Origin: Dictyostelium discoideum
Taxonomy: Eukaryota
Direction: 5' to 3'
NCBI GenBank assembly: GCA_000004695.1
Contig: CM000152.2
Coordinates: 320,001-384,000 of the forward strand
DNA length: 64,000 nucleotides
The position numbers were made by a program, and so were the translations under genes. The first letter of the stretch is position 1, and every line of letters begins with the position of its first letter. Under the pieces are notes generated by a model that worked only from the letters and a program-made list of their open reading frames with translations, did not search any database and had not been told where the DNA came from. This document shows positions 10,250-26,534 of this stretch, piece after piece.

Positions 10250-11290
10250 ATGAGCGGGAAAATCACAGATTTCTTTGAGAAAAAGACAACAACAACTATA
10301 GATGAAGCAGAAAATAAAGATAATGATAAAGAATTAACTTCTACCACTACCACCACCACAACAACCTCCACCACCTCAAAAAAAAAAGTAGCTGCAGCAC
10401 CAAAAAAAAAAGCAGCTGTAGCATCTAAAAAAAGAAAACATGAATCGTCAGATGAAGAAACAGATAAAGAAGAACAACAAAACGATGATGATGACGATGG
10501 TGAAGAAAAAGTCGAAAATAATAATAATAATAAAAAATTAAAAAATGAAGAGAAATCTGAAGAAATTAATTCGACAATAACAGATAACAATTATTATGAT
10601 GATATTGAAAATTATTTTACAGATAAACAATGGAAAGAAGCATTGAGTGGTGAATTTGGTAAAGCATATTTTAAGAAAATGATAACACAATTAAATAAAC
10701 GTTATAGTTCAAAAGAGAAACCAATTTATCCACCAAAGAATGAGATTTTCTCTGCATTTAATTACGCACATTTGGAGGATGTCAAGGTGGTTATCATTGG
10801 TCAAGATCCGTACCATGGCAAGGGTCAAGCTCATGGCTTGAGTTTCTCGGTCAAGAAGGGGGTATCACCACCACCATCATTGATTAATATCTACAAAGAG
10901 TTGGAGACTGATATCGAGGGCTTTAAAAGACCTTTGAAAAACGGCTTCTTAGAGCCATGGGCTAGACAGGGTGTGTTCTTACTTAACGCTGTCTTGACAG
11001 TGGAAGAGGCAACACCAAATTCTCACAAAGATTTCGGTTGGGCTGATTTCACTGATGCCGTATTAAAAATACTAAGTAAACAAGATCAACCAATCGTTTT
11101 CATTTTGTGGGGTGGCTTTGCTCAAAAGAAGGAAAAACTATTCACAAATAAAAATCATTTGGTTTTAAAGAGTGGTCATCCTTCACCATTATCAATTAAA
11201 CATTTCATTGGTTGTAAACATTTCTCAAAATCAAATGAATTTTTAAAATCAAAAGGTATTGAAGAAATTGATTGGAAGATTACAGAATAA
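10250..11290 (+). CDS. ung: uracil-DNA glycosylase (family 1 UNG) with an acidic/Lys-rich N-terminal extension
   Basis: Catalytic water-activating loop GQDPYH, Leu-intercalation loop HPSPLS, plus LLLN..L and WGG..A motifs in the correct order; single exon. Confidence 0.9.
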   Translation: MSGKITDFFEKKTTTTIDEAENKDNDKELTSTTTTTTTTSTTSKKKVAAAPKKKAAVASKKRKHESSDEETDKEEQQNDDDDDGEEKVENNNNNKKLKNEEKSEEINSTITDNNYYDDIENYFTDKQWKEALSGEFGKAYFKKMITQLNKRYSSKEKPIYPPKNEIFSAFNYAHLEDVKVVIIGQDPYHGKGQAHGLSFSVKKGVSPPPSLINIYKELETDIEGFKRPLKNGFLEPWARQGVFLLNAVLTVEEATPNSHKDFGWADFTDAVLKILSKQDQPIVFILWGGFAQKKEKLFTNKNHLVLKSGHPSPLSIKHFIGCKHFSKSNEFLKSKGIEEIDWKITE

Positions 11291-12482: not shown

Positions 12483-14836
12483 CATTTGATTTAAATGGTA
12501 AAAAACCTACCAAAAGTAATGTTGTAAGATTATTATTAAATAGAACTAATTCTGGAAGCAATTTATTATCAAAAAGAAGAACTTCAGAGACAGGAGATGA
12601 TGATAGTAATTCTAGTGTTGGTTTATTGAATAACAGTACTGGTAGTATAGGTAAAATGAATACACCAGAATCATCACCCAAATCATCATATATTCTAAGT
12701 AGTAGTATTGGTAGTGGTGGTAGTGGTGGTGGAGGTGGTAGTAGTGGTAGTCTTCAAAATTTAGATAGTGCTAGTAATAATAGTAGTGGCCCAAGGAGTA
12801 GAAGTGGTAGTCTTGGTAAAAATAATAGTAGCCAACAAAATAATAATAATTTAATATTAGACCCAAATTTTAATAATATTGATAAATCATTATGGACTGT
12901 TAGATCATTAAAAGAACATTCAAATCTTGTTGATATTATGGAAAGAATTAAACCAGCAAGTAGAGCCATTTCATTTGGTCAAATTTATGCAAGTGAAGAA
13001 ACTCAATTTGAATTTGATCCAGTTATTGGTCGTGATAATATTTTACAATTAATTTTACAACATTTACAATTTGAAGGTTTAATGGACTCTAGAAAAATTT
13101 TAGAAGAGGAAGCTAAAATTCAATATCCAGAATATACATTCAATGAATCAAGATTAGTCACCTTATTACGTGCTGTCATAAAAGATTCTGATAAAGTTTT
13201 CGATCTAACTCTAAATGATAGAGATAAAGATTCTCAACAAAAATTAGAAGAACATTTAGCATTCCTTGGTTTATTCAAAGATGAATCTCAAACTAATATG
13301 GTTGAAGATGTAAATATCTATGATGAACCTGAAAATTCAAATATTATATATGTAGATGAAAAAGATAATGATAAACCTTCAAAAGATTCACCAACAACAG
13401 CAACAACAACAACGACAGCAACAACAATTGCACCAAGTACAAGTATTAATAATTTATCAAGTTTATCAGTTAGTATAAGTTCAAATAATATAAATAATAA
13501 TAATAATAATAATAATAATATAAATAATTTAAATAGTACACAATTAATTAGTAATACACAACAACAACAAGCAACACCAAATACACCACCACAAGGTTTA
13601 AAATCAACACAATCAATTACAGGATCAACTGGTACATTAGGACCACAAGTTAAAGCAGCATCATTAAATAAATTAGTAATTTTATTAACACCAGAGAATA
13701 ATCATGATTTAGAGTATACAAAGACATTTTTATTAATGTATCAATCATTTACAACACCAGAGATATTATTACAGAAATTGATTCAACGTTATCATGTACC
13801 ACAAAAGGCAGGTCAATCAGTTGCAGAATGGAGACAACGTTCAACTCATATTCAACTTCGTGTACTAAATGTATTGAAAACTTGGATCAAAGATTATTTC
13901 TCTGATTTCTCTGAAAAGTTAATACTTGCCATTAAATCATTATTGGAATCAATGAGACAAACTGGTAATATGTCTTATGCAAAGGTGATTTCCGATGCCT
14001 TGAATTCAGGTTTAAAGAAAAGTGGTCGTAATAACACGGTTTTCACAGTTTCAGCACCCGAGCCTAAAGTACCTAAAAACATTTGGTCTCACAATTTAGA
14101 CATTTTCTCTGTGGATGAAGAGGAGATCTCTAGACAATTGACCTTGATGGACTTTGAAATCTTTTCAAATATTAAATCAACTGAACTTTTAAATCAGTGT
14201 TGGAATAAACCAAAACTACGTCACCGTTCTCCAAATGTTTTAGAATTAATTGGTCGTTTCAATGAAATCTCTCAATGGACTGCCACTTCGATTCTCTCAT
14301 GGCCCAAGGTTAAAGACAGAGCTAGAATCATGGGTAAATTCATAAAGATCGCTGAATACTGTATGAAGCATTTAAATAATTTCAATACTTCAATGGCAAT
14401 TCTTTCCGGTTTAAACGCTTCCTCAGTGCACAGATTAAAATTCACAAAAGAGGAATTACCAAGACACACTCAACAAGTTTACACAGAGTTACAATTTCAT
14501 CTAAGTTCAGCCCAAGCTTACAAAGAGTATCGTGCTTTATTAGCCAAGGCTAATCCACCATGTTTACCTTATCTTGGTGTTTATTTAACAGATTTAACAT
14601 TCTTTGAAGAAGGTAATCCCGATTTCATTCAAGGTTTTATCAATTTCGGTAAAAGAAAGTTAATCTATGGTTCAATCTCAAATGTTCAAAGTTTTCAAAA
14701 TACAAAATATAATTTACAACCTGTTTATCAAATTGCAAAATTATTAAAAGGTTTTAAACTTTTAGAAGAAAATGAACTTTATACAAGATCAATGTCTTTT
14801 GAACCAAGAAATAAAGAAAGAAGTGAAATTTTATAA
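12483..14836 (+). CDS. Ras guanine-nucleotide exchange factor main exon: RasGEF N-terminal (REM) domain followed by a CDC25-homology catalytic domain
   Basis: The frame is open upstream of the track M (12626) back to acceptor ATTATTAG at 12481-12482. REM-like region LVILLTPENN...TFLLMYQSFTTPEILLQKLIQRY. CDC25 motifs LTLMDFEIFSNIK...ELLNQCW, ...NPPCLPYLGVYLTDLTFFEEGNPDF. Confidence 0.85.
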
Positions 14837-14995
14837 AATTATAAAAGATTATAATCTTATTATTAATAGAATAAAAATAAATAATAAAAATAATAATAAT
14901 AAAATAATAATAAATAATAATAATTAATTAATGTAACAGTAACAATTTTAAATAAAATAAAAAATTAAATAAAGTAATAAATAATTCAAAGTTTG

Positions 14996-15026
<31 letters not shown>

Positions 15027-15062
15027 TTGAATTATCAAAATAAATTATTTATTTAAATAAAT

Positions 15063-15396
15063 TTATTTTGGACAACATTTTTTGTCACATCCACATGTTT
15101 TGTTACATGTGTTTTCACATGAGCATGAAGAGCATTTACATTCTATTTGTTGTTCTTTTGGACATGAACAACTATCTTTACAACAGTTGCAGTTGTCTTT
15201 AGTTTTGCAGCATTTACAACAGTTTGCCTGAATTGTTTATTTCAATAAAAATAATAATAATAAAAAAAATAAAAGAAAATAATAATATTAAGTATTAGTT
15301 TTAAATATTAATGGTTTAGATAATAATATATATAAAAAAAAAAAAAAAAAAAATAAAAGATAAATTAAATATATAATTTTTATGTGAACATACCAT
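15063..15396 (-). CDS. metallothionein-like 55-aa Cys-rich protein (M|ANCCKCCKTKDNCNCCKDSCSCPKEQQIECKCSSCSCENTCNKTCGCDKKCCPK); exon 1 is just the ATG (15394..15396), intron 15228..15393 (GTATGT...ATTCAG), exon 2 15063..15227
   Basis: AAAATG|GTATGT arrangement typical of Dictyostelium. Exon 2 is an open 55-codon frame with 18 Cys in C-C, C-x-C and C-x-x-C spacings and a TAA stop. Not in the ORF track because it is under 60 aa. Confidence 0.5.
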
Positions 15397-16191
15397 TTTT
15401 TTATTTTTTATTATTATCTGTTTAAAATTTTAATATATTTAAAATGTTTTTTTAAATTTTTTTTTTTCGTTCTTATACTTTTTTTTTTTTCCTTTTTTAT
15501 TAAATGAAAATTTAGTAAAAATTAAAATTAAAATTAAAATTTAATAAAAATCCTTTTTTTGGAAATTTCACCCACATTCTAATATTTTCATAAAAAATAT
15601 TTTCACAATTTAAAAGACACACAAAGAAAGAAACTTTTGGAAATTTGAAAAAAAAAAAAAAAAATAAAAAAAATAAAAAAATAAAAAAAAAATAAAAAAG
15701 TTAATTTTAATATTATAATAAACAATGATACCATATTATTGTAATAATTATAAAATTTGAAATAAATAATATTTTTTTTTAAAATAATATATTATTTTTT
15801 TTTTATTTTAATTTAATATTTTCAGTTTTCTATTTTTATTGTTATTATTATTATTTTTTTTTTTAAAGAAATTTAAAGTTACCAAAATTAGGGAATTTAA
15901 ATTAATCCTGATGAATTGTAAACATTACTTTGATATTAAAATTTTTTTATTATTAACAAAATTGATAAATGAGTGATGGATTATTTTTTATAAGGGAATA
16001 ATTTTTTCATCTTGAATATTAACTGAGAATCTTATTTCTAATTCACCTCTTTCATTCAAAAAATCTTGTAAAACTTTTCTTGATTCTGTAAAACTATTAC
16101 CCAACCCAAATTTCTCGATTCTTCGAAATCTATTAGAAGCAATATTAGTATTAAACATCTTTAAATAAATTTATAATAAAGAGAATATACG

Positions 16192-17273
16192 CTATTTACC
16201 TTGATGATATGGTCCAAATGATATCACAGTGGCAGTTGAATCATCTGGTGGAATTAAAGAAAATGAAAACATATATTTTAAGAGTATATCGGATCTTGTT
16301 TTTCTCATTAAATATATACCAAGCTTTCCTTTATTTCCGGTATTGCCTTTTGGATAAATCCTAATATTAAATTTGTGAGATCCCACTTTAAAAACATTTG
16401 ATTCTTTATATTTTTCATGGGTATATAATGCACTAACACTTCTATAGTCAGGAATAATCCATTTGTTACTGTATTCCATCTCTTTAAAACCATTCTGTTT
16501 CAAAACATTTATTTCCTTTTTCAATTGAGTATAATCACAAAGGAGGATGTTAAGTTTTTGATTAATTTCTTCCATTTTTTTTTCTTGATTTAAAAAACTT
16601 TGATTATCTTTTTTTATTATTTCATTTTGATTCATTAGTTTTGTGACTGAATGTTCTAAAGAGTGAATTTTCATTTTTGATCTAGGAAAAAGTTTTCCAC
16701 ATAAAAATTCTTGACAAATAATATTAATATCAGACAATCATCATTTATATGTTTAGTTTTTGTATCTCTTTTAATCATAATTTTACAATGAGAGCATTCT
16801 ATTAAATATTTTGTGCAATGTGTTTTATGATGATCAGATAATGACGATCTTTGAATATTACTATTACAATATACACATTTTGAATATACTTTTGAACATT
16901 CATTTTGATGTTTGTCTGAATCCTTACTAAAAAACTTAATTAAACATAAATCACATTGCAATATTCTTGATTCACAAACTTTATAATGATTCTCTAATTC
17001 ACTAAATTTCATTACACCATGATTACATAGATCTTGATGTAATGTTTGATTGCTATTATTAATAGCAGGTAAACCCAACATGTTGAGTCTAAATACATTT
17101 TCGTTTGAATTTGGACAAAAAACCAATCTGTCTTTTAACCAATTAGAATATTCATTTTCCAAAAATCTATTTCTTGATAATTCTGAAATAGAAGAAATTG
17201 GTGTTTTACAAGTCATACACTTTTTATTTGTACTTAAATATCTTTCCCAACAACTTCTACAAGCTAAATGACC
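16192..17273 (-). CDS. TRAF-family paralog A, exon 2 (rest of RING, three TRAF-type zinc fingers, coiled coil, C-terminal MATH domain). A 1-bp deletion relative to copy B near 16735-16745 splits the frame, so this may be a pseudogene or a sequence error
   Basis: Acceptor AAAAAG|GGTCAT at 17274-17275. Track ORFs 16671..17216 and 16192..16737 are the two halves in different frames. Alignment to copy B shows 38 nt versus 39 nt between identical flanks. Confidence 0.55.
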
Positions 17274-17348
17274 CTTTTTCCAAAATTATAAATATTATAT
17301 GGTTAGAATAAATAATGTTAGATTATTAATAATATAATTTATATTTAC

Positions 17349-17549
17349 TTCTTTGCATTGAAGAGCTTTTGGTTCACTTCCAATAAATAATTCTAAACTA
17401 CAAATAATACATTCATATTTTTCTTCATCTGAATCAAATAAAATATCTTTTATTTCATATTTAATTGGAATTGCTGTTTGTGTAATTCTTGTTGGAGATG
17501 TTGCGTTGTTTACATGATTTAAAATACCGAACATTTTTTTTAAAGACAT
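17349..17549 (-). CDS. TRAF-family paralog A, exon 1 (N-terminal half of a C3HC4 RING finger: ...YECIICSLELFIGSEPKALQCKE|)
   Basis: ATG at 17549; GTAAAT donor at 17348; phase 0; near-identical to copy B exon 1. Confidence 0.6.
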
Positions 17550-17860: not shown

Positions 17861-18476
17861 TTTAATTTTTTTTATTATCTTTTGTAATATCTTTTAATTG
17901 TTTTTAAAAAATTTTTTTATTCTACTTGAAGTATACTTTTTTTAATTTTTTTATTCCACTTGAAGTATACTTTTTTTAATTTTTTTTTTTTTTTATGAAG
18001 TTTGATATAATATTATAATAAACAAAGATTATTGTAATATTATAAAATTTGAAATAAATAATTTTTTTTTTTTTAAATCAATATATTGTTTTTTATTTTA
18101 ATTTAATATATTTCATTTTATTTTTATTACTATTATTTTTTTCAATCAAATTTAAAGTTACCAAGATAGAGAGTTCGAATTAATCCTGATGAATTATAAA
18201 CATTAGTTTTATATTAAATTTTTTTTATTATTAACAAGACTAATATATGAGCGATCTATTAATTTTTATAAGGGAATAATTTTTTCATCTTGAATAGTAA
18301 TTGAGAAACTTATTTCTAATTCACCTTTTTCATTCAAAAAATCTTTTAAAACCTTTCTTGAATCTGTAAATACATTAGTACCACAACTCAAACTTCTAGA
18401 TTCTTCGAAATCTATTAGAAGCAATATTAGTACTTATTAACTTCTTTAAATAAATTTAAAATAAAGAGAATATAAA

Positions 18477-19556
18477 CTATTTACCTCTATGGATTGGTCC
18501 TAATGATACTTTTGTAGCAGTTGAATCTTCTGGTGGAAGTAAAGAAAATGAAAACATATATTTTAAGAGTATACCATATCTTGGTTTCCTTTCTAAAAAT
18601 ACACCAAACTTTCCTTGTTTTCCGGCTTGACCATTTGGATAAATCTTAATATAAAATGTGTGGGATCCCACTTGAAAATCATTTGAATTTTTACTCTTTT
18701 TATGAGTATATAAAGCATTAAAACTTCTATATTCAGGAATAATCCATTTGTTACTGTATACCATCTCTTTAAAACTGTTCTGTTTCAAAACAGCTATTTC
18801 ATTTTTCAATTGAATATAATTATTAAGGAGGTTGTTAAGTTTTAGTTTAATTTCTTCGATTTTTTTTTCTTGATCCAAATTTTGATTATCTTTTTTTATT
18901 ATTTCATTTTGATTCATTAGTTTTGTGACTGAATGTTCTAAAGAATGAATTTGCATTTTTGATCTAGTAAAACGTTTGCCACATAAATATTCCGAACAAG
19001 TAATCATAATTTCTTCACAATCATCATTTATATGTTTTGTTATTGTATCTCTTTTAATCATAATTTTACAATGAGGGCATTCTATTAAATATTTTGTGCA
19101 ATGTGTTTTATGATGATCAGATAATGATGATCTTAGAATATTACTATTACAAAATTCACATTTTGAATATACTTTTGAACATTCATTTTGATGTTTGTCT
19201 GAATCCTTACTACAAAATTTAATTAAACATAAATTACATTGTAATATTCTTGATTCACAAGCTTTATAATGATTCTGTAATTCACTAAATTTCATTGCAC
19301 CATGATTACATAGATCTTGATGTAATGTTTGATTGCTATTATTAATAGCAGGTAAACCCGACATATTGAGTCTAAATACATTTTCGTTTGAATTTGGACA
19401 AAAAACTAGTCTATCGTTTAACCAATTAGAATATTCTTTTTCCAAGTATCTATTTCTTGATAATTCTGAAATTGAAGAAATTGGTGTTTTACAAGTCATA
19501 CACTGTTTATTTGTGCTTAGATATCTTTCCCAACAACGTCTACAAGCTAAATGACC
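18477..19556 (-). CDS. TRAF-family paralog B, exon 2 (intact). Product of about 424 aa with RING (C3HC4, split by the intron), TRAF zinc fingers, coiled coil and MATH/TRAF-C domain
   Basis: GHLACRRCWERYLSTNKQCMTC completes the RING. Repeated C-x-C...H...C zinc-finger units. C-terminal YSNKWIIPEYRSF...FYIKIYPNG...FGVFLE MATH-like strands. Acceptor TAAAG|GGTCAT. Confidence 0.75.
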   Translation of the reverse strand, partial: GHLACRRCWERYLSTNKQCMTCKTPISSISELSRNRYLEKEYSNWLNDRLVFCPNSNENVFRLNMSGLPAINNSNQTLHQDLCNHGAMKFSELQNHYKACESRILQCNLCLIKFCSKDSDKHQNECSKVYSKCEFCNSNILRSSLSDHHKTHCTKYLIECPHCKIMIKRDTITKHINDDCEEIMITCSEYLCGKRFTRSKMQIHSLEHSVTKLMNQNEIIKKDNQNLDQEKKIEEIKLKLNNLLNNYIQLKNEIAVLKQNSFKEMVYSNKWIIPEYRSFNALYTHKKSKNSNDFQVGSHTFYIKIYPNGQAGKQGKFGVFLERKPRYGILLKYMFSFSLLPPEDSTATKVSLGPIHRGK

Positions 19557-19635
19557 CTTTATTTAAATGATTTTAATTAAATTATATGGTTAGAATAAAT
19601 ATTGTGATATAATTGATAATTTAATTAATATTTAC

Positions 19636-19827
19636 TTCTTTGCATTGAAGAGCTTTTGGTTCACTTTCAATAAATAATTCTAAAGTACAAATATCACATT
19701 CATACTTTTCTTCATCTGAATCAACTAATATATCTTTTATTTCATATTTAATTGGGATTACTTTTGGTGTAATTTTTGTTGGAGATGTTGGGTTGTTTAT
19801 GTTGTTAATTAGATTTATAAAATCAAG

Positions 19828-19860: not shown

Positions 19861-20519
19861 CTAATAATGAGTATGAACAAAAATTAAAAAATAAAAGAAA
19901 AAAAGAAGAATAATTGGAAATTATGGTGAGTGTTACTGTTTGGAGGATGTTAAAAAAAAAAAAAAAAAAAAAAAAATAAATCAAAAATTAATCGTAATTT
20001 ATTTTAAAAAAAAAAAAAAAAATTTTTTTTCAATTTTGATTTTTGATTTATTATCTAGATTTAAAGCACAATGAAGCAGTTAGGGAATTAATTTTTTTTT
20101 TTTTGGGATATTTTTTTCTTTTTTTGGTGTCACGAAATCAGGAAAATAAAAAAAAATTAAAAATTAAAAATATATATTAATTATTTTTTTTTTTTTTAAT
20201 TTTACATTTTTATATTTTATTTATTTTTATATTTTTATTGTTTTTTTCAATGAAATTTAAAATTTCCAAAAATAGAGCAATTGATAATTTTTTATAATGG
20301 AACAGTTTCTTCACCTTTAATATTAATTGTGAAATATAATTCTAGTTCACCCCTTTCATTCAAATAATTTTTTAAAACATTTGTTGAATCTGTAAATTCA
20401 CTAGTACCCCAAAAGAAATTTTTAGATTCATGAAAATCTAATAGAAGCAAAATTAGTATTTTTTTTTTTCATCTTTAAATAAATTAATAAAAATGAGAAT
20501 AAACAGTATTTACCTATAT

Positions 20520-21780
20520 AGCATGGTTTCGATTTAATAATTTTTTTAAAATTTGAATCATTTGGTGGATTTTTAAAAAATAAAATATCATGTGTGCCAT
20601 ATATTGGCTCTCTAACTAATAATACAGCAAACTTTCCATGTTTTTTGGCCCTGCATTTGGATAAATCCTAAGATTAAATTTGTGAGAGCCCACTTTTAAA
20701 AACATTTGAATCTAAGTGCTTTTAATAATTCACTAACCTTTTAATAGTCATGAATAACCCATTTGTTTGTATGTCCTATTTCTTTTAAAACCATTATCTT
20801 TTGTATTAGTTAACCCATTTTGATTCATTAATTTGGCTACTGAATGTTCTAAAGAATGGATTTGTCTTTTTGTTCTCTTAAAACTTTTGCCACATAAATA
20901 TTCTGGACAAAAATCATTATTTCTTCACAATCATCATTTAAATGTTTTGTTTTTGTATCTCTTTCACTCACCATTTTACAATAAGTACATTCTATTGTAG
21001 ATCATCATTATCTGATCATCATAAAACTTATTGTAAAAAAAATTTTTTACAATAAGTTTTATGATGATCAGATAATGATGATCTTATGATATCAGTATTA
21101 CAAAATTCACATTTTAAAAATACTTTTGGACATTCATTTTGATGTTTTTCAGAGTCCATACCAAAAAACTTAACTAAACATAAATTACATTGTAATATTT
21201 CTAGATTCACAATTTTGAATATGTTTCTCTAATTCACTGAATTTCATTACTCCACGAATACACAAATCTTAATGTAATTTTTGATCAATGCTATTATTTT
21301 CATTATTAATAGCAGGAGAACCTAACATGTTGATTCTATATAAATTTTCAATGGAATATGGACAAACAACTAATCTATTTGATAGTCAATCAGAATATTC
21401 ATTTTCAAAAATTCTATTTCTTGATAATTCTGAAATTGGCATTTTACAAATCATACAATCTTTTTTTGTTCTTAAATGACTTTCCCAACAATTTGAACAA
21501 ACTAAATGACCCTTTTTAAAATATATATTTGGTTAGAATAAATGATGTGTTATATTAAATAAAAAAATTGTATATTTACTTCTTTGCATTGAAGAGCACT
21601 TGCATGATTTCCAATAGAATATTCTGAATAATAATTACATTCATATTTTTCTGCATCTGAATCAACTAAAATATCTTTTGTTTCATATTCAATTGAGACT
21701 GTTATTGGTGTAATTTTTGTTGAAGATGTTGTGTTGTTCAAATGATTAAAAATACCAAACATTTTGTTTTTTCCAACCAA
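20520..21780 (-). pseudogene. TRAF-family paralog C, shattered pseudogene: recognisable exon-1 and zinc-finger pieces, internal deletions (coiled coil/MATH mostly gone) and an inverted duplication at 21001-21082
   Basis: Track fragments 21550..21780 (MVGKNKMFGIFNHLNN...YECNYYS...) and 21028..21210 (ILQCNLCLVKFFGMDSEKHQNECPKVFLKCEFCNTDI) align to copies A/B but are in different frames with stops. Confidence 0.6.
21001..21082. repeat. near-perfect palindrome, two 40-bp inverted arms (atcatcattatctgatcatcataaaacttattgtaaaaaa / reverse complement) centred on an A8T6 run, inside TRAF pseudogene C
   Basis: The right arm is the native TRAF zinc-finger coding sequence (same as 19105-19140 in copy B); the left arm is its inverted copy. 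Confidence 0.7.
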
Positions 21781-21839: not shown

Positions 21840-22200
21840 AAAAAAGAAATCAAAGGAACTTGTTTTTAGTGTGATGGTTTTGAGGATGTTAAAAAAAGAA
21901 ATAAAGTAACTGGTAGTGAGTATTATGGTTTTAAGGGTGTAAAAAATTAAAAAAATAGAAATAAAAGAAATGTTGGTGATTATATAGTTTTAAACTATAT
22001 GGTTTGTAGGATGTGAAAAAAAGAAATAAAAAAAAAGAAATCAAAGAACCGTTGGTGATTTTATAGTTTTATTGTTTTAAGGATTTTAAAAAAAGAAATA
22101 AAATATCTGGTGGTAAATATTATGGTTTTGAGGATGTAAAAAAAAAAAAAAAAAAAGAAATCGAAGGATTTTATAGTTTGCATGAAGTTAAAAAAAAAAA
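21840..22200. repeat. minisatellite of about six 55-70 bp units (gaaat...ggtggtga.tattatggttttgaggatgt.aaaaaaa) in the 5' flank of TRAF copy C; single copies of the same element lie upstream of copy B (19900-19950) and copy A (17610-17660)
   Basis: Direct visual periodicity: the ggttttgaggatgt / ggtttgtaggatgt / ttttaagggtgt cores recur 6 times separated by poly-A. Confidence 0.6.
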
Positions 22201-22259
22201 TTTAAAAAATAAATAAAATTTTTCTCAACTTAATTTTAATTATACAAAATATATTCAAC

Positions 22260-22760
22260 TTATTTTTTAACACTATTGATTAATGGTAAACCCATATTGA
22301 GTCCAAATGTATTTAATTTGGAATATGGACAAACAACTAATCTATTATTTAACCAATTAAAATATTCATTTTCTAAATATCTACTTCTTGATAACATTAA
22401 AATTGATGGAATTGGAGTTCTGCAAATCATACACTCTTTTCTTAAAACTAAACATTTTTCCCAACAACTTTTACAAGCAAAATGACCCTATTTTTTTTTA
22501 AATTATATAAATAAATAATGTAGTGAGTATAATTATTATATTTTAATTATTAGATATGTATGTATTTATTTATTTACTTCTTTGCATTGAAGAGCTTCTG
22601 GTTTTTTCTCATTAATTAACTCTGAATTACAAATATCGCATTCATATTTTATTTCACTTGAATCAACTAATATATCTTTTATTTCATATCTAATTTGGGC
22701 TGGTATTGTTTCAATTTTTGTTGGACCTCTTCTATCCATTAGAGATACGACCCTAATCAT
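22260..22760 (-). pseudogene. TRAF-family paralog D, truncated. Exon 1 (22578..22760) plus a shortened exon 2 (22260..22487) give an intact 140-aa RING-only ORF; zinc-finger, coiled-coil and MATH parts are absent. Either a remnant or a RING-only neo-gene
   Basis: Same exon-1/intron/acceptor architecture as A/B (GTAAAT donor 22577, acceptor AATAG|GGTCAT). The frame runs ...[30 protein letters not shown]... to TAA at 22260. Confidence 0.45.
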
Positions 22761-22895
22761 TTTTTTTTAAATCCAAAATTGTGTAATTTAAAAATTTAAT
22801 GGCAACTATCAAAAAAAAAAAAAAAAAAAAAAATTAATTTATTTTCGTTCTTCAATATTTAAATTAAAATTGTGTTAAAAGTTAATATATGCTGA

Positions 22896-22926
<31 letters not shown>

Positions 22927-23306
22927 AGATCTTTTAACAAATTCTAAAATCCAATTCTTTAAATCCAGTAAATTTTAACTTTATTCAAGCAAAAAAAAAA
23001 AAAAAAAAAAAAAAACTCTATATCGGGTATTTTAATTTTTTTTTTTAAAAAAAAACCATTAATTTTATTTTTAATTTGTTAATTAAAAGGAATTTTTTGT
23101 TTTATAATTGATTGTTATAATATAAACACAAAAATAAATTAATATCAATTTTTATTTTTTGAATTAAAATTATCATCCATTCAATAATTAATTGGTACTG
23201 TTGTTGTCTAGAGAGTATGAAAAAAACCATTGTGGTTTTTATTTTAATCATTTTTTTTAAATCTTTATATAAAAATATATTTACAAAAATGTAAATACCA
23301 TTTTTC

Positions 23307-23670: not shown

Positions 23671-26448
23671 TTAATTTAAAATACCTCTACCAAAATATTC
23701 AGAAACAGTAGTGAAACCATCAGGAGAACTTCTTAATAATTTAAAGAATTGATCATGTTGATTGGCGGAATCAGCTTGTGATCTTTTAATCTCTTGAATT
23801 CTTTTATTAGCACCAGCACAAGAAGGACATTCTCTTTCATTCTCACCGAGACATCTTTGATGGAAAGAATGTTGACATAAAAAGTGAACACTTGGTAAAT
23901 CCAAAGCCAATAGACAAGCGATACATTTAGTTTGTTGGAAAATTTTAGAATTTGTACGAAGTTCGTTGATTTCATGTCTCATCTTTTCAGTCTCATCGGC
24001 GTATTGTCTGATTTGAGTGTAATCCTTATCGATTTGTTGAGTTTCTTGAGACAATCTTCTAGAGATATAATCTTTGATGACGGCCAAAGTGGTATTCTTA
24101 TTTTGTGATAGGATTTGTATTACCAAGAGTGGTGGAATGAGATTCTCCTTATCGATGTTGGTCAACACCTCGATGATCTCATCTTGACAATCCTGTTTAT
24201 TGGTTGAAAAGAATGACAATGCTCTCACCCAAAGGTTTGGATCTTTTACACCATATCTCTTGCAAGCTTTGATCAAGCCATCGTAATCATTATTCTCCAT
24301 ATGGTACTCGATGATCTCATTGAATAACTCTAACTTTTCATATAAATACAATACACCCTCCTTCCAATTATGAACTTGTACTAAAATCAATGCATGATCT
24401 TGATCAAATTTTGATTTTGGATTCGTTAAAAATTCATATGCTTTCGCTTTTCTCTTTATTCTCTCATCATCAGTTTGATTGACATCATCTCTCAAATATA
24501 ACTCTAACAATGTATTATAAATTAATGATGATTCATTATTACCTTGTTGTACCATATATTCTAAAAATTTAACTAACCAATCTGCTTGTGATACAAAAAT
24601 ATGAATAAATTCTTCTGGTGCTGATTTTTGTTTAAATCCAATATTATTATTATTATTATTATTATTATTTTGATTATTATTATTACTATTATTATTTTGA
24701 TTATTATTATTTGTTACATTTGTTACAGTTGTTGTTGTTGTTGTTTGATTACTAATTGTTAAACCATTTAAATTTAAAGCTGTTAAAGAATCAAAAGCTT
24801 GAACTGGTTGATAATTTGTACATAATTTCATTAAGACACCAGTAGTTTCTTCAGGAATTTCAGAGACTAATTGTTTACCATATTTTTTAAGATTTTTATC
24901 AGCTTCTTCCCAATCAAGTGTTTGAATGTAATCTAAAGCTTTTCTATATTCATTGAGATCCTCCAAGAGAATTTTAAGATACCAATCGTGACGACTATGT
25001 TTTGATGCTAAAAAGAGTGCACGATCGAAATAACCACCTTGACGACAAACTTTAATTGCTGTCTCGACATCGAATGTACCATTGTCTGTCATAATGAAAT
25101 GATCGAGTTTCTTTACATCCTTTAATTTGGTATAACAATTCAAGAGTAGTGTAGTGTGGTTGGCTGTGGCTAAATTCTTCTCATGCAATGCTTGAATGTA
25201 TGATGTAAGATTATGAATTCTTTGAGCGTCCAAGAACTTTCTAATGACATAAGATGGCTCCAACTGACCAATCGTGCAAAGGTATTGGGTGATGGCGCCG
25301 TCGTAGTCGCCCTTGGCATACAACCTGTCGCCATACTCCCTATAGACGTCTGCAATGGCACTATTGTCATAATGCTGTGACTTTGCTAAATCGATAGCCA
25401 CTTGATATGAATGCTTCTTAAACAAGGTTTCCAACTTGGTTTGTGTGTCTTTCTCCTCCAATTGAAACACCTTACCATCGGCACCAAATATGAAAATTGA
25501 GCCCCACTCACTGCAAATATGAGACACTGTATCGAACTTCTCTGTGAAACCAATATATTTATTCTTTAAATCATAGATATTCAATACATTGTTTTTCGTG
25601 TTTTGCACCATAACCGATGGCGACCCAATACTACCTGTCTGACTACCCAACCCACCTATGCTATTCTGTCCGCCTACCACAGCACCTGGGAACAAGGCAT
25701 TGGTGTTGTTAGTGTCATATCCAATCACTACCAAATAGGAACGGAACCACAGCACTTTGGTCTTCACACCTGTGAAACCAAAACACGGTCCTCTTCCATC
25801 CACATTATAGAAATAAATTGCATCTGATCTTGCTATAATTGGCGACCCATCGTCACTCATTAAAAACGAGCCGATGTCACCCCCCTCATCGTCTATTATC
25901 GTCTCTTGATCTTTATGTGCTGTATGATAGGTTATAACATGTGTTGTTGTCACTACAAACAACACTGCACCCGCACTCGCACTCTGTTGACTCTTTGTTG
26001 GGAAAAACCCTAACCCTGTAATTGGCGAATCGTTTGGTACTTTGATAATCTTTTGTTTAATAACTTTATCTCTAAATATATCTGCTCTAATTATAATGAT
26101 TTCACCATTTGCTAAACCAACGATAATCTGTGACAAATCTTCCAACAATGTGAAACATGTTACTGTAACTGATTTCTCTAATTTAATAGATCTAACACAA
26201 ATTGGTTGTTCATTCTTATCAGTTTTATCAAGATTCCAAATTTTTAAGATTGCTGCACCACCAATATCATCATGACCAACTGAAGAAAGGAAATTTCTCT
26301 CCTTTAATTGATAAATTAATGATACTGATTGTTGATATGCTTGAAATGATGATATTCCAAATTCTCTATCTACAAAATTAATAAAACCTTCTGCATCACC
26401 AATAATTAAACTACCACGACCACTAGTTGTACATGTAATTGATAATTT
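23671..26448 (-). CDS. vps11: Vps11 (HOPS/CORVET core subunit) exon 2: beta-propeller, clathrin-heavy-chain-like repeats, C-terminal RING-H2
   Basis: C-terminus CIACLLALDLPSVHFLCQHSFHQRCL...CPSC...FTTVSEYFGRGILN closely parallels human VPS11 (LPSVHFLCGHSFHQHCF...CPTC...FSVIADYFGRGVFN). Also YVIRKFLDAQRIHNLTSYIQALH and TTLLLNCYTKLKD match. Confidence 0.85.
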   Translation of the reverse strand, partial: KLSITCTTSGRGSLIIGDAEGFINFVDREFGISSFQAYQQSVSLIYQLKERNFLSSVGHDDIGGAAILKIWNLDKTDKNEQPICVRSIKLEKSVTVTCFTLLEDLSQIIVGLANGEIIIIRADIFRDKVIKQKIIKVPNDSPITGLGFFPTKSQQSASAGAVLFVVTTTHVITYHTAHKDQETIIDDEGGDIGSFLMSDDGSPIIARSDAIYFYNVDGRGPCFGFTGVKTKVLWFRSYLVVIGYDTNNTNALFPGAVVGGQNSIGGLGSQTGSIGSPSVMVQNTKNNVLNIYDLKNKYIGFTEKFDTVSHICSEWGSIFIFGADGKVFQLEEKDTQTKLETLFKKHSYQVAIDLAKSQHYDNSAIADVYREYGDRLYAKGDYDGAITQYLCTIGQLEPSYVIRKFLDAQRIHNLTSYIQALHEKNLATANHTTLLLNCYTKLKDVKKLDHFIMTDNGTFDVETAIKVCRQGGYFDRALFLASKHSRHDWYLKILLEDLNEYRKALDYIQTLDWEEADKNLKKYGKQLVSEIPEETTGVLMKLCTNYQPVQAFDSLTALNLNGLTISNQTTTTTTVTNVTNNNNQNNNSNNNNQNNNNNNNNNIGFKQKSAPEEFIHIFVSQADWLVKFLEYMVQQGNNESSLIYNTLLELYLRDDVNQTDDERIKRKAKAYEFLTNPKSKFDQDHALILVQVHNWKEGVLYLYEKLELFNEIIEYHMENNDYDGLIKACKRYGVKDPNLWVRALSFFSTNKQDCQDEIIEVLTNIDKENLIPPLLVIQILSQNKNTTLAVIKDYISRRLSQETQQIDKDYTQIRQYADETEKMRHEINELRTNSKIFQQTKCIACLLALDLPSVHFLCQHSFHQRCLGENERECPSCAGANKRIQEIKRSQADSANQHDQFFKLLRSSPDGFTTVSEYFGRGILN

Positions 26449-26534
26449 CTTTTTTTTTTTCAATAATAATAATAATAGTAAAAAATAAATTAGTATTAAA
26501 TTCTTATTAATATTATTTTTTTGTGAATACATAC

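Follow-up and report, generated by a model that had tools for sequence, protein, structure and literature searches.

The window analysed here is a 64,000-nucleotide (nt) stretch of the Dictyostelium discoideum genome (assembly GCA_000004695.1, contig CM000152.2, positions 320,001 to 384,000 of the forward strand). On its reverse strand, convergent with the RasGEF gene gefI, it carries a small gene, here called the micro-gene, in which the start codon is the whole coding part of the first exon and is followed directly by an intron and by a second exon that holds the other 54 codons (Table 1). A sequence-only reading of the window had proposed this arrangement and described the product as metallothionein-like. 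Its ATG (15396-15394), GTATGT donor and 165-bp second exon all match the sequence to the base, and splicing in silico yields the product of 55 amino acids (aa) with 33% cysteine (Cys; 18/55) that it had announced.

The spliced product, MANCCKCCKTKDNCNCCKDSCSCPKEQQIECKCSSCSCENTCNKTCGCDKKCCPK, has a mass of 6.02 kDa and contains 18 Cys (32.7%), 10 lysines (Lys; 18%) and a single glycine. The Cys residues occupy positions 4, 5, 7, 8, 14, 16, 17, 21 and 23 in the first half and 31, 33, 36, 38, 42, 46, 48, 52 and 53 in the second, forming four CC, six CxC, one CxxC and four CxxxC motifs. Between the two groups of nine lies PKEQQIE, which is the longest run of the peptide without Cys. Lys, serine (Ser), asparagine (Asn) and threonine serve as filler residues, F, W, Y and H are all absent, and M1, A2 and I29 are the only hydrophobic residues apart from Cys. 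The frame of exon 2 has no methionine codon, and a TAA precedes the acceptor by three codons, so that the frame is translatable solely after splicing to the upstream ATG. For the same reason it is missing from the open reading frame (ORF) listing even at a cut-off of 20 aa. Between the TATA-like element (15477-15472) and the start at 15396 there is no other ATG. At the 3′ end, CCAAAATAAATT is kept in D. citrinum and D. firmibasis, and the AATAAA that overlaps the stop codon is presumably used as the polyadenylation signal.

Table 1. Coordinates of the micro-gene, its upstream blocks, its neighbours in the window and its orthologs at syntenic loci (L numbers) of other species.
Feature	Sequence	Position	Strand	Description
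Start codon (whole coding part of exon 1)	Window	15394..15396	-	ATG only, followed by donor sequence GTATGTTCA; same in four species
Intron	Window	15228..15393	-	166 nt, GT...AG; donor GTATGT from 15393; 3′ end ...AATTCAG
Exon 2	Window	15063..15227	-	165 nt, 54 codons plus TAA (15065-15063); 9 Cys in residues 4-23, linker PKEQQIE at 24-30, 9 Cys in 31-53
AATAAA polyadenylation-type signal	Window	15062..15067	-	Overlaps stop codon; second copy at 15048-15053
Putative 5′ untranslated region (UTR) block AAACAGATAATAA	Window	15411..15423	-	Followed by an A-run before ATG
TATA-like element (GTATAAG)	Window	15472..15477	-	81 nt upstream of ATG; TATAA kept in four species
Upstream block TGTGGGTGAAATTTCC(A)6-7GGATTTT	Window	15547..15576	-	G-box-like element, second AAATTTCCAAAA copy and CC(A)nGG stretch
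Upstream block TGTGTCTTT	Window	15613..15621	-	TGTGTGT in D. discoideum, G/T-rich; invariant columns in four-species alignment
Upstream block CAAATTTCCAAAAGTT	Window	15632..15647	-	Holds first AAATTTCCAAAA copy; near-invariant in four species, with D. firmibasis having C for A at position 13 of 16
Uracil-DNA glycosylase (P53766)	Window	10250-11290	+	
RasGEF I, gefI (Q8IS15)	Window	ends 14836	+	Convergent with micro-gene; stop codons 226 nt apart
TRAF/MATH-domain genes	Window	upstream of micro-gene	-	Same strand as micro-gene
vps11	Window	23671-26532		Beyond the TRAF/MATH genes
D. cf. discoideum ortholog	L011	exon 2 at 21437-21601		K55R relative to D. discoideum; intron 166 nt
D. citrinum ortholog	L002	exon 2 at 13171-13335		D19E and S22T relative to D. 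discoideum; intron 118 nt
D. firmibasis ortholog	L003	12892-13128		Five conservative changes relative to D. discoideum; intron 69 nt

Our comparison with other dictyostelids, whose syntenic loci were reached with the gefI and vps11 orthologs as anchors, revealed that the micro-gene is conserved at least in the clade of D. discoideum, D. cf. discoideum, D. citrinum and D. firmibasis. The three orthologs lie in the same syntenic place 3′ of gefI and in the same orientation as the D. discoideum gene, and in all four species the ATG is followed by GTATGTTCA and the AG end of the intron abuts GCAAACTG. Identity between species is 88-98% in exon 2 (90% between D. discoideum and D. firmibasis) and falls to as little as 35% in the intron between D. 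discoideum and D. firmibasis, and the peptides that unspliced read-through into the intron would give are short and unconserved across species. In three pairwise comparisons, 11/12, 13/16 and 17/19 of the exon-2 substitutions are located at the third codon position, with Nei-Gojobori ratios of nonsynonymous to synonymous substitution rates (dN/dS) of 0.027, 0.070 and 0.039 and Fisher P values for the synonymous excess of 1e-7, 6e-6 and 1e-9, respectively. All 18 Cys are invariant in the four species, and the linker is either invariant or changed conservatively. The third-position bias, the low dN/dS and the invariant Cys indicate that the exon is translated and under strong purifying selection. 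We therefore regard the spliced micro-gene with its intron straight after the start codon, which the sequence-only reading had proposed, as genuine given its coding-type conservation in four species: it is almost certainly a real, selected protein-coding gene, and by comparison with its orthologs it would also be transcribed and spliced in D. discoideum itself.

The composition of the locus points in the same direction. At the base composition of the window (24% GC), about 1.2 Cys codons would be expected in 54, and at least 18 would occur with P ~1e-16. Several Cys-rich frames do arise in the AT-rich window from the opposite strand of simple repeats, and exon 2 is the sole Cys-dense frame in the 64 kb that is neither a simple repeat nor the antisense of one. 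Its GC content is 33%, that of the intron 9% and that of the flanks 7-11%, which is the contrast between exons and non-coding DNA that is usual for the D. discoideum genome. All five Asn codons of the product are AAC, compared with 9.8% AAC in the long ORFs of the window (P = 9e-6, in a small sample). Highly expressed Dictyostelium genes are reportedly biased to C-ending codons, and the AAC bias of the micro-gene fits the direction of this preference.

The D. firmibasis ortholog of the gene is already deposited as a hypothetical protein: the GenBank annotation of this species (GCA_036169595.1) contains a 55-residue gene at 12892..13128, which corresponds exactly to the stretch from ATG to TAA of our model. 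This annotation was produced with MAKER, for which the sole evidence was the UniProt proteome of D. discoideum and Trinity transcripts assembled with genome guidance, and was then checked manually (PMC11193728). Such an evidence set implies that the model derives either from a spliced D. firmibasis transcript or from a D. discoideum protein already in UniProt, and the micro-gene may already be in dictyBase. No gene is called at the locus in the GenBank annotations of D. discoideum (GCA_054883475.1, chromosome CM142509.1 of which is 99.6% identical to the window) and D. cf. discoideum (GCA_054859205.1), nor does the gene-position index hold a gene with exactly the D. discoideum product. In D. 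citrinum, a 590-aa GenBank model (L002 13251..15864, reverse strand) stops at an out-of-frame TAG (13253-13251) within exon 2; it is evidently a mis-call, probably fused or mis-predicted, which hides the micro-gene. Thus the description of the gene as unlisted holds for the two D. discoideum-clade annotations and the gene-position index and fails for D. firmibasis. Neither a word-indexed homolog search nor phmmer run over all 1.84 billion representatives gave a match, and two metagenome scans, one for peptide patterns and one for a degenerate DNA pattern, were equally empty. The gene-position index does contain the 55-aa protein annotated in D. firmibasis, yet this protein is absent from the 15-billion-protein collection and its representative library, so that the silence of the protein libraries is uninformative for such short Cys-rich peptides. 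The locus shows how ATG-only first exons evade ORF-based screening, with two GenBank annotations missing the gene and one mis-calling it.

Two alternatives to a separate gene have to be weighed. A chance frame, or a conserved non-coding element that translates to a Cys-rich string, would be in line with the lack of such a protein in two large libraries, with the two D. discoideum-clade annotations that call nothing at the locus and with the tendency of AT-rich genomes to give Cys-rich frames as simple-repeat antisense. However, the D. firmibasis protein, though annotated, is missing from the libraries as well, exon 2 is not a simple repeat, the substitutions are mostly at third positions (dN/dS 0.03-0.07), and the length of the intron shifts between species while the frame, the splice sites and the 18 Cys stay in place. 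In our judgement this substitution pattern is incompatible both with a chance ORF and with conservation of a non-coding element, and we consider it very improbable that there is no gene at this position. Even less credible is a fragment of a larger gene, which might be an EGF-type Cys-rich exon, as the sequence-only reading had cautioned, or the 3′ end of an upstream TRAF/MATH gene. The D. citrinum 590-aa model does overlap exon 2, and genes with EGF repeats exist elsewhere in the window (39718-41472), but the former is a mis-call that ends out of frame, the frame of exon 2 is closed by a TAA on both sides, the flanks of 7-11% GC carry stops in all frames, and in D. firmibasis the gene has only gefI and vps11 beside it and no TRAF/MATH gene in the vicinity. 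Together with the lack of an EGF or any other Pfam match, the closed frame excludes a larger EGF-type exon. An EGF-like or secreted disulfide-rich domain was likewise rejected, on these grounds and because the peptide has no signal peptide.

What the product does can be approached from its composition. Metallothioneins are defined operationally (Kagi/Binz), by chemistry and not by descent, and all sequence-level features of the definition are found in the peptide: a low mass (6.02 kDa, with about 10 kDa as the upper limit), a Cys content within about 15-35% arranged in C-C, C-x-C and C-x-x-C arrays (32.7%), aromatic residues and histidine (His) scarce or absent (none) and an intracellular protein without secretory signal, the last judged from the lack of a hydrophobic N-terminal segment and not with a dedicated predictor. 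Because this segment is lacking, no signal peptide is predicted and a cytosolic location is expected. The label metallothionein-like given in the sequence-only reading is therefore apt as far as sequence hallmarks go. The definition also asks for several d10 metal ions bound in metal-thiolate clusters with characteristic spectroscopy, which the 9 + 9 Cys layout makes plausible, and usually, though not of necessity, for synthesis that metals induce. On balance we think it probable that the peptide acts as a metallothionein. On sequence grounds, the micro-gene is the best candidate for a metallothionein in D. discoideum.

Transcription would start downstream of the TATA-like box, which precedes the ATG by about 80 nt, the first coding exon would contribute the ATG alone, the short AT-rich intron (GTATGT...AG) would be removed and the 165-nt exon would supply the other 54 residues. 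The resulting Cys/Lys-rich product of 6.0 kDa would be cytosolic and probably unstructured without metal. Each nine-Cys half (4-23 and 31-53, joined by PKEQQIE) would wrap one metal-thiolate cluster, which, if the crustacean proteins with 18 Cys are a guide, would hold about three Zn or Cd, or a larger number of Cu(I), and the role of the protein would be the cytosolic buffering or detoxification of Zn, Cu or Cd. An AlphaFold model from the single sequence shows almost no secondary structure, with a predicted local distance difference test score (pLDDT) of 57 and a predicted template modelling score (pTM) of 0.26. Such a low-confidence model would fit a peptide that folds only around metal (apo-thionein), for which a single-sequence run is weak evidence.

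Among known proteins, the peptide is most readily set beside the crustacean metallothioneins of Homarus americanus (MT-1) and Callinectes sapidus (Cd6-MT-1). The lobster MT-1 sequence used for this comparison was confirmed against PDB entries 1J5M and 1J5L, and ‘Cd6 metallothionein-1’ is the name of the crab chains (1DMC and 1DME). The size is alike (55 aa in Dictyostelium and 58 aa in lobster), and both have 18 Cys as 9 + 9, no aromatics or His, many CxC motifs with Lys beside Cys, a CC near the N-terminus and a C-terminal CCP(K/T). In lobster MT-1, nine Cys lie by position 27 and nine from position 30. However, the Cys spacing differs, with four CC pairs in the Dictyostelium peptide and two in lobster MT-1, and there is no homology between the two that HMMER detects. 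Against composition-preserving shuffles, the global alignment with lobster MT-1 reaches a z of 3.0, a score attained by 0.85% of shuffles before correction for six comparisons, and the local alignment a z of 1.9 (5.1% of shuffles); the control alignment of lobster MT-1 with human MT2A gives a global z of 3.3 (0.25% of shuffles). Vertebrate and yeast CUP1 metallothioneins belong to the same operational class, being smaller than 7 kDa, about one-third Cys, Lys-rich and cytosolic with CxC and CC motifs, but neither of their Pfam profiles (PF00131 and PF11403) matches the Dictyostelium peptide, and the global and local alignments of the peptide with human MT2A or yeast CUP1 do not rise above shuffles (z 0.4-1.2; 14-31% of shuffles reach the score).

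The gene architecture has its counterpart in Dictyostelium itself. In the SigN/HssA family of small-protein genes, 89 of 96 consist of a 13-nt reading frame in exon 1, one short intron and one coding exon (PMC2257962). The micro-gene shares with this family (also SigN/HssA/2C/7E) the minimal exon-1 frame, the single short intron and coding exon, a product below 100 aa and G-box-like promoter elements. Since very short exon-1 frames are usual in Dictyostelium small-protein genes, the ATG-only exon, with 3 nt instead of 13, is not exotic; the GTATGT donor recurs in intron 1 of the adjoining gefI. SigN proteins, in contrast, are 87-89 aa long, rich in Ser, glycine and Cys, poor in Lys and equipped with four conserved Cys and a predicted transmembrane segment, whereas the micro-gene product, with its 18 Cys, 10 Lys and one glycine, lacks a hydrophobic segment and does not resemble them in sequence. 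Membership of the SigN/HssA family (87-120 aa, Ser/Gly/Cys-rich, Lys-poor, four Cys) was rejected on composition and length.

Conserved elements were also found upstream of the gene. The 300 nt upstream of it are 72-92% identical between species despite a GC content of about 11-16%. Three copies of the 12-mer AAATTTCCAAAA are present in the 64 kb (15557-15568, 15635-15646 and 20260-20271), compared with 0.68 expected; two of them lie in the micro-gene promoter, 78 nt apart, and the third is located near the TRAF/MATH genes. In D. firmibasis each promoter copy deviates by one base, the proximal one (15557-15568) reading AAATTTCTAAAA, and the other three species have both copies unchanged. AACAGATAAT is present in all four species, and the alignment keeps three of them in register with D. 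firmibasis shifted. A G-box-like promoter element matching the GBF consensus is conserved as well, and the TGTGGGTGAAATTTCC(A)6-7GGATTTT block that includes it could have a regulatory function. GBF drives post-aggregative genes, and on the strength of this element one might speculate that the micro-gene is expressed developmentally, after aggregation. No metal-response element was recognised among the conserved promoter blocks; to our knowledge, none has been defined for Dictyostelium. The CC(A)6-7GG stretch was considered as an SRF-type CArG box and set aside as weak, as the length of its A-run and its first C vary between species.

Several points weigh against a metallothionein. The case for a real gene is a sequence-based one, and that for a metal role is drawn from composition. 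No Pfam family matched the D. discoideum peptide at E <= 10 or the D. firmibasis peptide at E <= 1, in searches where human MT2A matched PF00131 at 5.6e-23 and yeast CUP1 matched PF11403 at 2.9e-25 as positive controls. Lobster MT-1, a metallothionein of solved structure, has no Pfam match either, and a miss of this kind does not exclude the class. A PDB sequence and profile search gave no match at E <= 10, with 1J5L, 1J5M, 1DMC and 1DME in the database. The likeness to the crustacean proteins is probably a weak pattern resemblance and not homology; since the organisms are unrelated, it would be convergent. Moreover, no ortholog was found within about 20 kb of gefI or vps11 in D. purpureum and P. 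violaceum (two loci each, L004 and L009, and L006 and L010) or within about 20 kb of gefI in T. lacteum (L007), in all of which synteny is disrupted at these loci. A match at D. purpureum L009 1179-1247 was rejected as the antisense of a Gln/Pro-rich gene. Given this lack of orthologs in the syntenic regions, the micro-gene may be young and confined to one lineage. Within the window, the TBLASTN search for paralogs that the sequence-only reading had recommended found no true paralog, its matches being only simple-repeat antisense frames and EGF repeats. Furthermore, a chemical assay detected no metallothionein in D. discoideum according to Burlando et al. 2002, as that study is cited in PMC3777012 and bioRxiv 10.1101/356949. 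Mainly developmental expression could, speculatively, reconcile this result with the micro-gene, if the assay is assumed to have used growing amoebae.

A rival view is that the gene encodes a real, expressed micro-protein that is not a metal buffer, for example an S-acylated ‘cysteine-string’ membrane peptide, a thiol or redox scavenger, or a peptide for developmental cross-linking or structure. The evidence that the gene is real serves this view equally well, S-acylation is an equally good reading of the N-terminal CCKCCK, as Lys-flanked CC pairs resemble palmitoylation sites, and the conserved GBF-type G-box would suggest developmental and not metal control. The negative chemical assay and the lack of a match to any metallothionein family fit it too. 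However, the Cys are spread over the whole peptide in a CxC/CC pattern with a 9 + 9 split that is typical of thiolate clusters, the composition is unlike that of the SigN/HssA small proteins, and the lack of a hydrophobic segment and of a signal peptide makes an extracellular structural role unlikely. We regard a function other than metal buffering as a serious possibility that falls well short of an even chance, and continue to prefer the metallothionein.

The literature leaves room for such a protein. The remark of the sequence-only reading that no canonical metallothionein was known to have been described for D. discoideum is roughly right in view of the negative assay of 2002 and needs amending in that one gene, DDB_G0288281, is annotated as a putative metallothionein, the single such gene in D. 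discoideum, whose status its authors call open (Bozzaro et al. 2013, PMC3777012). It has the organism and the proposed function in common with the micro-gene. No further paper mentioning DDB_G0288281 was found in the literature searched, nor was a named Dictyostelium metallothionein or a metal-stress transcriptome. By what we take to be the dictyBase numbering, the identifiers of gefI, patA and vps11 lie at about DDB_G02778xx-02781xx on chromosome 3, and 0288281 would belong to chromosome 5. DDB_G0288281 is therefore probably a different gene from the micro-gene. Transporters and the contractile vacuole are credited with the metal tolerance of Dictyostelium (bioRxiv 10.1101/356949; PMC3777012), and work on metal homeostasis in this organism and on bacterial ‘metal poisoning’ currently assumes that there is no classical metallothionein. 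A conserved peptide with 18 Cys and a predicted cytosolic location represents a concrete candidate for a function thought to be absent in a major model organism. On the present evidence it is a lineage-restricted example of a known protein class and not a new kind of system. A more far-reaching scenario, which we offer tentatively and think rather doubtful, is that group-4 Dictyostelium possess a lineage-restricted metallothionein family, unrelated by descent to the catalogued families, that has converged on the crustacean two-cluster design of 9 + 9 Cys. Such a family might have been missed by chemical assays as its members are small, absent from the D. discoideum annotations examined and perhaps expressed mainly after aggregation via the conserved G-box. 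In that case it would also have a share in the tolerance of the amoeba to Cu and Zn, which is unusually high, and in the buffering of cytosolic Zn while bacteria are being killed.

The surroundings of the micro-gene differ among species. Its conserved neighbours are gefI and, in D. firmibasis, also vps11, since in that species the TRAF/MATH cluster is wholly absent and the micro-gene lies directly between the two. This indicates that the cluster was inserted or expanded in the D. discoideum lineage. In the window the cluster contains a tandem duplication of about 1.8 kb (15735-17512 and 18028-19799, 88.6% identity), with weaker copies up to about 22700. An Rfam search over 14800-16200 revealed no RNA family. 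The micro-gene had further been placed next to a Ca2+-responsive region on account of patA at 30 kb. An ORF of 1010 aa for a P-type cation ATPase, corresponding to this patA, is indeed present at 45072-48104 (+), with E1-E2_ATPase, Cation_ATPase, Hydrolase and Cation_ATPase_C domains. However, about 30 kb amounts to about a dozen genes, and the proximity carries no evidential value. P. violaceum also has a cation ATPase in the vicinity of gefI (L006 2793-6224).

Other features of the region are of minor interest. Calcium-binding-EGF-like repeats, such as DIDECAKGTSGCAQGC...SCSCxxGY, are encoded at 39718-41472 and 38708-39772 on the reverse strand and gave weak tblastn matches to the Cys-rich query; the EGF-type Cys-rich gene there is genuine and unrelated to the micro-gene. 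A 102-aa thioredoxin gene is located between vps11 and the TRAF genes (L011 13715-14427 in D. cf. discoideum; about 22000-23000 in the window), and its position a few kb from a Cys-rich micro-gene is probably coincidental. In D. citrinum, an (ATT)n microsatellite of more than 170 nt, absent at this place in D. discoideum and D. firmibasis, separates the 3′ end of the micro-gene from gefI (L002, about 12890-13060).

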